29,317 bases of DNA from a virus (taxonomy: Duplodnaviria; Heunggongvirae; Uroviricota; Caudoviricetes): IMG/VR virus record IMGVR_UViG_2872164251_000007, positions 1-29,317 of that record. One strand, given 5' to 3'. This document shows, piece after piece, positions 14,705-14,779 of the stretch. Each line of letters begins with the position of its first letter. The stretch's first letter is position 1. The position numbers were made by a program, and so were the translations under genes. The notes beneath the pieces are model-generated. The model did not search any database, was not told the origin of the DNA, and saw only the letters and a list, made by a program, of their open reading frames with translations.

Positions 14705-14779
14705 TGGAGCGGGCGAAGGGAATCGAACCCGCATCATCAGCTTGGAAGGCTGAGGTAATAGCCATTATACGATGCCCGC
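14705..14779 (-). tRNA. tRNA-Gly (anticodon UCC), glyT-like, with atypical 3' end (probable attL)
   Basis: Cloverleaf folded by hand; anticodon loop CUUCCAA; 3' end CCCTTCGCCCGCTCCA gives two T-stem mismatches and an A7:C66 mismatch, unlike the copy at 5794-5810. Confidence 0.7.

Follow-up and report, generated by a model that had tools for sequence, protein, structure and literature searches.

Why would a tRNA gene in a prophage end in bases that do not fit the rest of the gene, when an end that does fit lies several kilobases away? This question is raised by the 29,317 nucleotides of IMG/VR record IMGVR_UViG_2872164251_000007 (Caudoviricetes), all of which we analyzed and which we call the window. 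The window includes a prophage-borne tRNA-Gly(UCC) gene at 14705-14779 (minus strand; called by ARAGORN, as tcc, and by the Rfam tRNA model). This gene has glyT-type sequence at positions 1-63 of the tRNA and then a 3' end (64-76) of the type found in glyU, the chromosomal gene for tRNA-Gly(CCC). Very probably, a genomic island whose home is glyU integrated instead at a prophage's copy of glyT, and a glyT/glyU hybrid tRNA-Gly was the result.

The tRNA-Gly is the final gene in a tightly packed cluster, Met(CAT)-Arg-Thr-Gly, as called by ARAGORN. Its 3' end reads ...GGGTTCGATTCCCTTCGCCCGCTCCA, or in longer form ...GCGGGTTCGATTCCCTTCGCCCGCTCCA, and the reverse complement of 5794-5810 reads TCCCGCTGCCCGCTCCA. 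When compared to glyT of Escherichia coli K-12, the window's gene is identical at 72 of 75 positions, and it differs, in canonical numbering, by G64U, C65U, and U66C only. Swapping in the end from 5794-5810 yields K-12 glyT exactly (75/75), so a preliminary description of the locus was right that this end would restore the pairing and would match glyT. That description also listed two unpaired positions in the T stem and a mismatch at A7:C66. As we read the pairing from the sequence, A7:C66 and C50:U64 are mismatched, but G49:U65 is a wobble pair. Within the window, GCCCGCTCCA occurs exactly twice, versus an expectation of 0.07, and none of 100 shuffled sequences reached two occurrences. If we allow up to three mismatches to the 17-mer TCCCTTCGCCCGCTCCA, then the only matches in the window are the tRNA end (14705-14721, minus strand, with no mismatches) and 5794-5810 (minus strand, 14 of 17), with 0.08 expected. 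We will refer to these as the tRNA-proximal and the distal attachment (att) cores.

The DNA from 5794 to 14721 is an 8.9-kb insertion in the last 17 bp of the tRNA gene. It is made up of an island of about 6.4 kb and two insertion sequence (IS) elements. We know that it was inserted because relatives without it join the native glyT end directly to the DNA that lies below position 5794 of the window. In the insertion-free prophage of E. coli FDAARGOS_944 (L001), the same tRNA cluster ends with a tRNA-Gly that is identical to glyT (75/75), with its CCCGCTGCCCGCTCCA end, and then continues with GTCAGAGTCTTTCAGTCTGCGATGATGGG... Similarly, the temperate phages PhiR47_1 and vB_EcoS-689R5 carry a glyT-identical gene with the native CCCGCTGCCCGCTCCA end between Q and the holin gene. 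In all three, the tRNA end is followed by GT(C/T)AGAGTCTTTCAGTCTGCGATG..., just as below position 5794. The flanks of these unoccupied genes are seamless. More precisely, the window at 5340-5810 is 99.8% identical to L001 at 5547-6017, the window at 14705-15733 is 98.4% identical to L001 at 6001-7029, and these two alignments overlap in L001 by exactly 17 bp, which are the end of the tRNA. The distal core is the displaced native 3' end of the prophage's tRNA-Gly. These empty sites, along with an integrase gene that lies 134 bp from the tRNA end, bear out the earlier proposal that an element had integrated into the tRNA gene at its 3' end, supplied an imperfect replacement, and displaced the original end.

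Could CCCTTCGCCCGCTCCA simply be the native end of this phage tRNA, or could the junction be an artefact of assembly, so that nothing was inserted? We found no point in favor of this idea, and we give it essentially no credence: it is refuted by the three uninterrupted relatives, with their glyT-type ends and contiguous flanks. Also, more than 10 independent assemblies (many of which are short and broken by IS elements) share the junction, and the complete genome CP032513.1 is 100% identical to the window over 21.6 kb that include the junction. No uninterrupted prophage has the CCCTTC form as its native end, and the island end is joined to a glyT-type 17-mer only in genomes with the nested island.

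Where did the new end come from? Its sequence is exactly that of the 3' end of glyU, because glyU is the home site of the island. E. coli 13E0767 (L002) has the same island at its chromosomal glyU, beside actS/xdhA and the ETT2 cluster, where it is bounded by perfect 17-bp repeats of TCCCTTCGCCCGCTCCA. Both of these repeats are identical to the tRNA-proximal core of the window, which was supplied by the island. The glyU of K-12 is the empty counterpart of this site. The island of L002 is 96-99% identical to the window's at the DNA level, with 99.6% amino acid identity for the integrase, and the right-end segment of the window's island (5811-5986, minus strand) matches the corresponding end in L002 at 98.5% identity. 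The window's integrase is 99.6-99.8% identical to the integrases that are found at glyU in E. coli.

The integrase is a tyrosine integrase of 536 amino acids (12960-14570, minus strand) whose gene is uninterrupted and has the same orientation as the tRNA. It matches PF00589 from Pfam (E = 1.6e-18, residues 325-513) and the integrase family PHROG 1 (E = 2.7e-45), and the catalytic residues R...HxxR...H...Y can be read in its translation (GARLNE, HSFRH, GHS, and TYDRY). Between the att core and the integrase gene is the non-coding left arm of the island (14571-14704, minus strand), which is conserved across variants in an alignment of the window, L002, and four other loci that carry related islands (L003, L004, L049, and L050). 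The integrase gene is present, at 80% coverage or more, in 179 of 5,426 complete E. coli genomes, and it is chromosomal in all of them. Among 19 loci of other Enterobacterales genera (Citrobacter, Buttiauxella, Enterobacter, Klebsiella, Rouxiella, Pectobacterium, Proteus, Kluyvera, Morganella, Edaphovirga, and Serratia), 15 have the gene about 135 bp downstream of tRNA-Gly(CCC), and the other loci are tandem arrays with degenerate att fragments. Since the integrase is found at tRNA-Gly(CCC) across E. coli and other Enterobacterales, glyU is the home site of this integrase family, and the prophage tRNA, with its 14/17 core, is a secondary site. When we searched the literature for glyU together with an integrase, we found only mentions of ETT2 beside glyU.

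At glyU, the island often has company. In E. coli PE15 (L017), glyU and the island are separated by another prophage (13852-25338) that has a tyrosine integrase of its own, so glyU is a hotspot that holds several elements in tandem. The island is often the second element of such an array (L024, L026, L031, L032, and L039). The tandem arrays contain internal att fragments, about 140 bp upstream of the integrase gene, that are shortened in the part that corresponds to the acceptor stem, such as CCCTTCGCCTCCA and CCCTTCGCCGCTCCA. In L024, L026, L031, and L039, the shortened fragments are preceded by a doubled (T)GTATAG motif. We considered L039 as a possible prophage-embedded copy, as it has a Q antiterminator upstream, and rejected it: its two elements form a tandem array at glyU and are separated by a degenerate att fragment. 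The shortened fragments and the doubled (T)GTATAG resemble the "damaged attR fragment" and the doubled motif of phage-inducible chromosomal islands (PICIs; PMC10111431).

The prophage tRNA is a recurrent target, and it has been occupied by islands from at least two integrase subfamilies. Among the 5,426 complete E. coli genomes, the nested form is present in one, EPSSH018 (L003), and the island is at chromosomal glyT in none. This absence would fit with selection against disruption of the thrU-tyrU-glyT-thrT-tufB operon. Judging from sequence comparisons, L003 looks like a separate integration, because its island is more diverged from the window's (89-95% identity, versus 96-99% for the island of L002) and because the window's prophage flanks are nearer to the unoccupied L001 than to L003. 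The second subfamily of integrases has 73% amino acid identity to the first, and its closest relatives are at tRNA-Gly(CCC) in Klebsiella, Morganella, and Lonsdalea. It too is found at the prophage's tRNA-Gly(UCC): in L004 the tRNA is a hybrid (TTC at positions 64-66), and in four contigs from IMG/VR (L049, L050, L051, and L058) the glyT end is intact (GCT). The prophage backbone of L058 is 99.3% identical to the window's, and the two have IS scars in common, so two different islands are in the same decayed prophage in different Shigella lineages.

There are also hints of movement within Shigella. In ECMA0423 (L018) and S. flexneri SFBU1023 (L019), a segment from the left part of the island (2290-5359) is 99.9% identical to the window at 11711-14722. 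This segment is at chromosomal glyU, beside actS, and is then cut by an IS element; both assemblies are rich in indel errors. The glyU-resident integrase in these strains differs from the window's at one residue. So within the Shigella lineage, the island may have occupied both sites or may have moved between them. Homologues of the island's proteins also carry the label Shigella flexneri. Scanning species-representative genomes for the exact pattern of the hybrid tRNA gave nothing, because the nested form lives in non-representative strains of Shigella and E. coli. A scan of metagenomes gave matches that we rejected, as they were only the chromosomal glyT-thrT loci of another species, with a chance match to the pattern at "ATCAC". 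A literature search for prophage-encoded tRNAs as integration sites returned nothing relevant.

Given the two kinds of ends, where did the exchange take place? In the orientation of the tRNA, attB at glyU reads ...GAGGGTTCGATT-CCCTTCGCCCGCTCCA-ATTTATC, the right end of the island reads ...GTCGTAGGCT-CCCTTCGCCCGCTCCA, the left end of the island reads CCA-TGACACTTCTTAAAG..., and attB of the prophage reads ...GCGGGTTCGATT-CCCGCTGCCCGCTCCA-GTCAGAG. The reconstructed attP is ...GTCGTAGGC-TCCCTTCGCCCGCTCCA-TGACACTTC... At the tRNA junction of the window, the prophage sequence runs through TTCGATTCCC and then comes TTC; at the far junction, the island sequence runs through GGCTCCC and then comes GCT. 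Both the window and L003 have these reciprocal products. It follows that the inherited exchange lies between positions 59 and 64, that is, at T60-C63. The preliminary description viewed the crossover as uncertain, as the shared block was only 10 bp. The site is now narrowed to TCCC (positions 60-63).

We propose that the island, which would normally use its own tyrosine integrase to integrate at the 3' end of glyU, entered the prophage-borne copy of glyT as a secondary site. Its attP would have carried the final 17 bp of glyU (TCCCTTCGCCCGCTCCA), of which the prophage tRNA matches 14, and the inherited exchange would have occurred 5' of the three mismatches, within TCCC. The tRNA kept its own positions 1-63 and gained positions 64-76 of glyU, and its native end moved 8.9 kb away, to 5794-5810. 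The integrase presumably catalyzed this event. Also, the near-identical islands at two different sites imply that the island was mobile in the past, and it may be able to excise as a circle and re-integrate.

Some observations weigh against this account. There are only 4 bp of identity (TCCC) 5' of the mismatches, which is short for the overlap of a tyrosine recombinase, and the exchange may have run through heterology. Furthermore, the related subfamily of islands is found at the same prophage tRNA with an intact GCT end (L049-L051 and L058), so the outcome is not always a hybrid. Some attP sites could carry a glyT-type core. These same observations bear on a variant of our proposal, to which we assign a little less than an even chance: the event would be the same except that positions 64-66 were inside the overlap, and replication would have segregated the resulting heteroduplex into two types, one with TTC at the tRNA and GCT at the far end and the opposite one with an intact tRNA. 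This would account for how the second subfamily came to show both junction types at the prophage tRNA (a hybrid in L004, and intact in the other four). Tyrosine recombinases such as the Int of Tn916 and IntDOT do tolerate heterology in the overlap. On the other hand, the far junction, where TTC is predicted, is preserved in none of the cases with an intact tRNA, and although the window and L003 show the same segregant, two cases decide nothing.

It is much harder to believe that the island integrated cleanly and that chromosomal glyU afterwards gave rise to the hybrid end through gene conversion or homologous recombination, or that the island itself moved by a RecA-dependent route. It is true that GGGTTCGATTCCC and GCCCGCTCCA are common to glyU and the prophage tRNA, and the S. 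flexneri strains with a 99.9% identical island segment at glyU contain a possible donor. Nevertheless, these blocks of identity have lengths of just 13 and 10 bp, and the same product is seen again in L003 with a diverged island. Also, the exact reciprocal partition of TTC and GCT, with boundaries that are the ends of the island at glyU, is what a single site-specific crossover predicts. We consider such a route very improbable.

Does the hybrid tRNA still work? The preliminary description had suggested comparing covariance-model scores, and with the tRNA model from Rfam the hybrid scores 48.9 bits, or 16 bits below the intact prophage copy in L001 (64.9 bits); glyU scores 71.6 bits. The hybrid lacks the full pairing of a 7-bp acceptor stem and a 5-bp T stem. 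Its minimum free energy is -23.4 kcal/mol, versus -28.4 kcal/mol for the intact copy, and its best fold is no longer a cloverleaf. If the cloverleaf is forced, then the values are -21.2 and -27.7 kcal/mol, so that the hybrid is weaker by about 6.5 kcal/mol. The T-stem pairs from 49:65 to 51:63 contribute to the binding of EF-Tu, which makes it plausible that the hybrid is impaired, and we predict from its sequence that it is weakened and has lost function. Again there is evidence on the other side. The hybrid scores well above the Rfam threshold (29 bits), ARAGORN still calls it, and it keeps the UCC anticodon and acceptor pairs 1-6, so it may still be functional. The identity elements for glycyl-tRNA synthetase are U73, the pairs 1:72 to 3:70, C35, and C36; these are unchanged in the sequence of the hybrid.

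Even if the hybrid is damaged, the cost to the cell is probably small, because this gene is an extra copy on a prophage and the chromosomal glyT presumably remains. (Chromosomal glyT is outside of the window, and it is present in nearly every E. coli genome.) The other tRNAs of the cluster are unaffected, and each has the same Rfam score as in the unoccupied prophage: Thr(UGU) at 14783-14858 scores 69.8, Arg(UCU) at 14861-14937 scores 56.4, and Met/Ile2(CAU) at 14939-15015 scores 70.5 (all on the minus strand and called by ARAGORN). In one nested variant, L041 (CP054892.1), the 5' acceptor strand of the hybrid has a 4-nt deletion (from GCGGGCATCG to GCGGCG; 3374-3444) and the tRNA is not called by ARAGORN. 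L041 also has an IS element inside the integrase gene. The deletion could be either decay or an error in the assembly.

What does the island encode? Without its two IS3-family insertions it is about 6.4 kb, with open reading frames (ORFs) for the integrase, a 202-amino-acid protein, a variable middle (here a Rha/Ant-like regulator), and proteins of 58, 163, and 329 amino acids. The 202-amino-acid protein (12320-12928, minus strand) has no hit in Pfam, PHROG, NCBIfam, or PADLOC. Exactly this protein is widespread beside this integrase, and its counterpart in L003 is a DUF4145 protein. The gene for the Rha/Ant-like regulator (9348-10049, minus strand; PF09669 at E = 4.3e-18 and the anti-repressor Ant family phrog_10324 at E = 2.1e-69) has had its 5' end cut off by the IS element at 10050, and an intact version with 242 amino acids is present in L045. 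This IS element (10050-11359, plus strand) is 1,310 bp, has the ends TGAACCGCC...GGTTCA and a 3-bp duplication (GTT), and contains rve and HTH_21 domains along with an ALIL frameshift pseudoknot (120 bits); from its terminal repeats, we take it to be IS629-like. The other IS element within the island (5987-7235, plus strand; 1,249 bp) has an rve domain and a 3-bp duplication (GGC), is absent from the island of L002, and is presumably IS911-like, again going by the terminal repeats. An ORF-poor stretch of about 1 kb in the island contains a repeated motif, CCCTATAGTGATAGTT(T/A)AG, at 11707-11725, 12268-12286, and 12294-12306. The first copy is exactly where the similarity to the glyU-resident island resumes past the variable middle. 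The motif could be an operator or a recombination site. A scan for promoters and terminators gave results at or below chance, so we did not use it.

We turn now to the island's protein of 329 amino acids (7486-8475, minus strand). It has no hit to any sequence family, and searching the sequences in PDB with either the protein or its profile also found nothing. The profile did find remote relatives, two of which have C-terminal immunoglobulin-like domains; such domains are common in virion proteins, which is suggestive of a role in a shell but only that. With an alignment of 13 close sequences, AlphaFold's confidence (pLDDT) was 45; with a 36-sequence alignment that included the remote relatives, it was 81. 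The latter model matches only HK97-fold shells (Foldseek gave 208 hits in PDB at E ≤ 0.001). Based on this model, the protein is HK97-fold capsid-like or encapsulin-like, and it may assemble into a shell. Directly upstream is the ORF for 163 amino acids (8559-9050, minus strand), which is kept together with the 329-amino-acid gene in all copies of the island. It has no family hit above threshold in Pfam, PHROG, NCBIfam, or PADLOC, and its position hints that it might be scaffold-like.

Because it encodes an HK97-fold capsid-like protein, the island is a candidate for a small phage satellite or for a carrier of an encapsulin-like shell. This raises another explanation for the nested form, which is that the prophage location is not an accident. 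A minimal satellite of about 6.4 kb (integrase, Rha-like regulator, scaffold-like protein, and HK97-fold capsid homologue) might be adapted to a helper-embedded state: by using a phage-borne paralogue of its chromosomal tRNA target, it would place its genes under the late transcription of the helper and would travel inside the helper's genome. Helper-embedded PICIs are a documented lifestyle (PMC10111431), and the capsid-like protein and the Rha/Ant-like regulator speak for this explanation, as does the location. The island lies between the Q-like DUF1133 gene with the tRNA cluster and the holin gene, its genes are co-oriented with the late genes, and islands of at least two integrase subfamilies (73% identical to each other) have occupied the prophage tRNA. 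Nevertheless, we think that this explanation is unlikely. The overwhelming majority of copies are at chromosomal glyU and outside of any prophage, and the 5,426 complete E. coli genomes include just one nested form. Across 50,697 phage records there is no close relative of the integrase (the best is 31%), which is weak evidence against routine co-packaging. We did not find a portal, terminase, protease, AlpA, or primase in the island with Pfam, NCBIfam, or PHROGs, nor did we find a defense system with PADLOC, and the doubled TGTATTGC motif of the helper-embedded PICIs is absent from the island. Finally, the prophage is riddled with IS elements, and as the window and L058 have IS scars in common and yet have different islands, the prophage had already decayed when at least one of the islands came into it, whether by arrival or by exchange.

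The prophage resumes below the island with a shortened holin gene (5322-5501, minus strand; phage P21 holin S family PF04971, E = 1.1e-24) that is collinear with the holin gene of L001. This prophage is clearly defective, as its holin gene is shortened and its lysozyme gene is truncated. It has a very high load of IS elements (1206-3845, 3928-5110, 15733-16346, 16755-17987, 19917-20684, 25834-27166, and 27618-28881), which in addition to the two within the island include an IS66-family element, three IS600-family copies (one of them partial and the others full), an IS91-type transposase that is split, IS1, and an IS2-like element. A C4 antisense RNA (77.6 bits) and an isrK-like RNA (63.5 bits), at 18178-18365 and 15224-15871 (minus strand), have the Q-like DUF1133 gene just upstream of them and an ORF6N gene downstream, and this region looks like an antirepressor control module of the P1 immI type. 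A hok/sok toxin-antitoxin pair is at 21175-21499 (minus strand; 118 bits for sok and E = 3e-23 for Hok/Gef). At the edges of the window, an ABC-3 family permease and a LysR-type regulator are encoded at 1-858 (plus strand) and 28835-29317 (minus strand). They may be chromosomal or cargo genes at the flanks of the prophage remnant.

We see three reasons to care about this locus. First, it is a clean natural example of a tRNA-targeting integrase using the gene for the wrong isoacceptor, with a hybrid gene as the result, and the point at which the hybrid switches from one type to the other is enough, with no experiment, to place the crossover within 4 bp. Second, the tRNA genes of temperate phages can act as landing pads for other mobile elements. 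Third, the island belongs to a family that is common (in E. coli and in many genera of Enterobacterales, as described above) and whose annotations name nothing but hypothetical proteins, even though one of its products has a capsid fold. Because the island is widespread and encodes this protein, it is worth testing as a small phage satellite.

Many islands and prophages with tyrosine integrases are found at the 3' ends of tRNA genes, including those with P4-type integrases and ICEclc, which is at a tRNA-Gly. Williams, writing in Nucleic Acids Research in 2002, is said to have described classes of sublocation for integration within tRNA genes. Our island is like these elements in that its integrase gene adjoins the tRNA gene's 3' end, its attP has the terminal 17 bp and regenerates the gene at glyU, a direct repeat marks the far end, and relatives have empty sites. 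It differs in that the target here is the gene for another isoacceptor, with a 14/17 core and on a prophage, so that a glyT/glyU hybrid is formed, and also in being very small, with capsid-like cargo and no metabolic or virulence genes.

Salmonella genomic island 1 (SGI1) uses a secondary site at sodB-purR, either in the absence of thdF or together with it (PMC2297512). Like SGI1, our island has a strongly preferred attB and an occasional imperfect second site, and it forms tandem arrays at the preferred site (at glyU in PE15 and in L039). Unlike with SGI1, the secondary site is a paralogous tRNA gene, and its use alters the product of that gene.

Helper-embedded PICIs target protein-coding late genes and have integrases from one clade (Tommasini, Mageeney and Williams 2023, PMC10111431). 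They also have the doubled TGTATTGC motif in attP, alpA, and a replication zone. Like them, the island is small, bears an integrase, and has its own capsid-type gene along with a Bro/Rha-type regulator, and it sits within a lambdoid prophage's late region, in the same direction as late transcription. Unlike them, it has a tRNA gene as its target and a home site on the chromosome, it does not have the doubled motif, and neither alpA nor a primase was detected. Other satellite-encoded homologues of HK97-fold capsid proteins, such as Ccm of SaPIbov5 and the major head proteins of cf-PICIs, can be compared to the island's 329-amino-acid protein.

Finally, in the tRNA-dependent lysogeny of actinobacteriophages, integration destroys a tRNA of the host and a copy from the phage compensates (Guerrero-Bustamante and Hatfull 2024, PMC10865867). 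In both cases, the tRNA is not properly rebuilt from a short common core, and compensation comes, or would come, from another gene of that isotype. The roles are reversed, however, as here the phage-borne copy is the one that is damaged and chromosomal glyT would presumably compensate. Also, the failure here is due to the wrong isoacceptor and is not the normal design of the element. The event is a standard integration at the 3' end of a tRNA gene, albeit at a secondary site, and its mechanism is the ordinary one of the textbooks.

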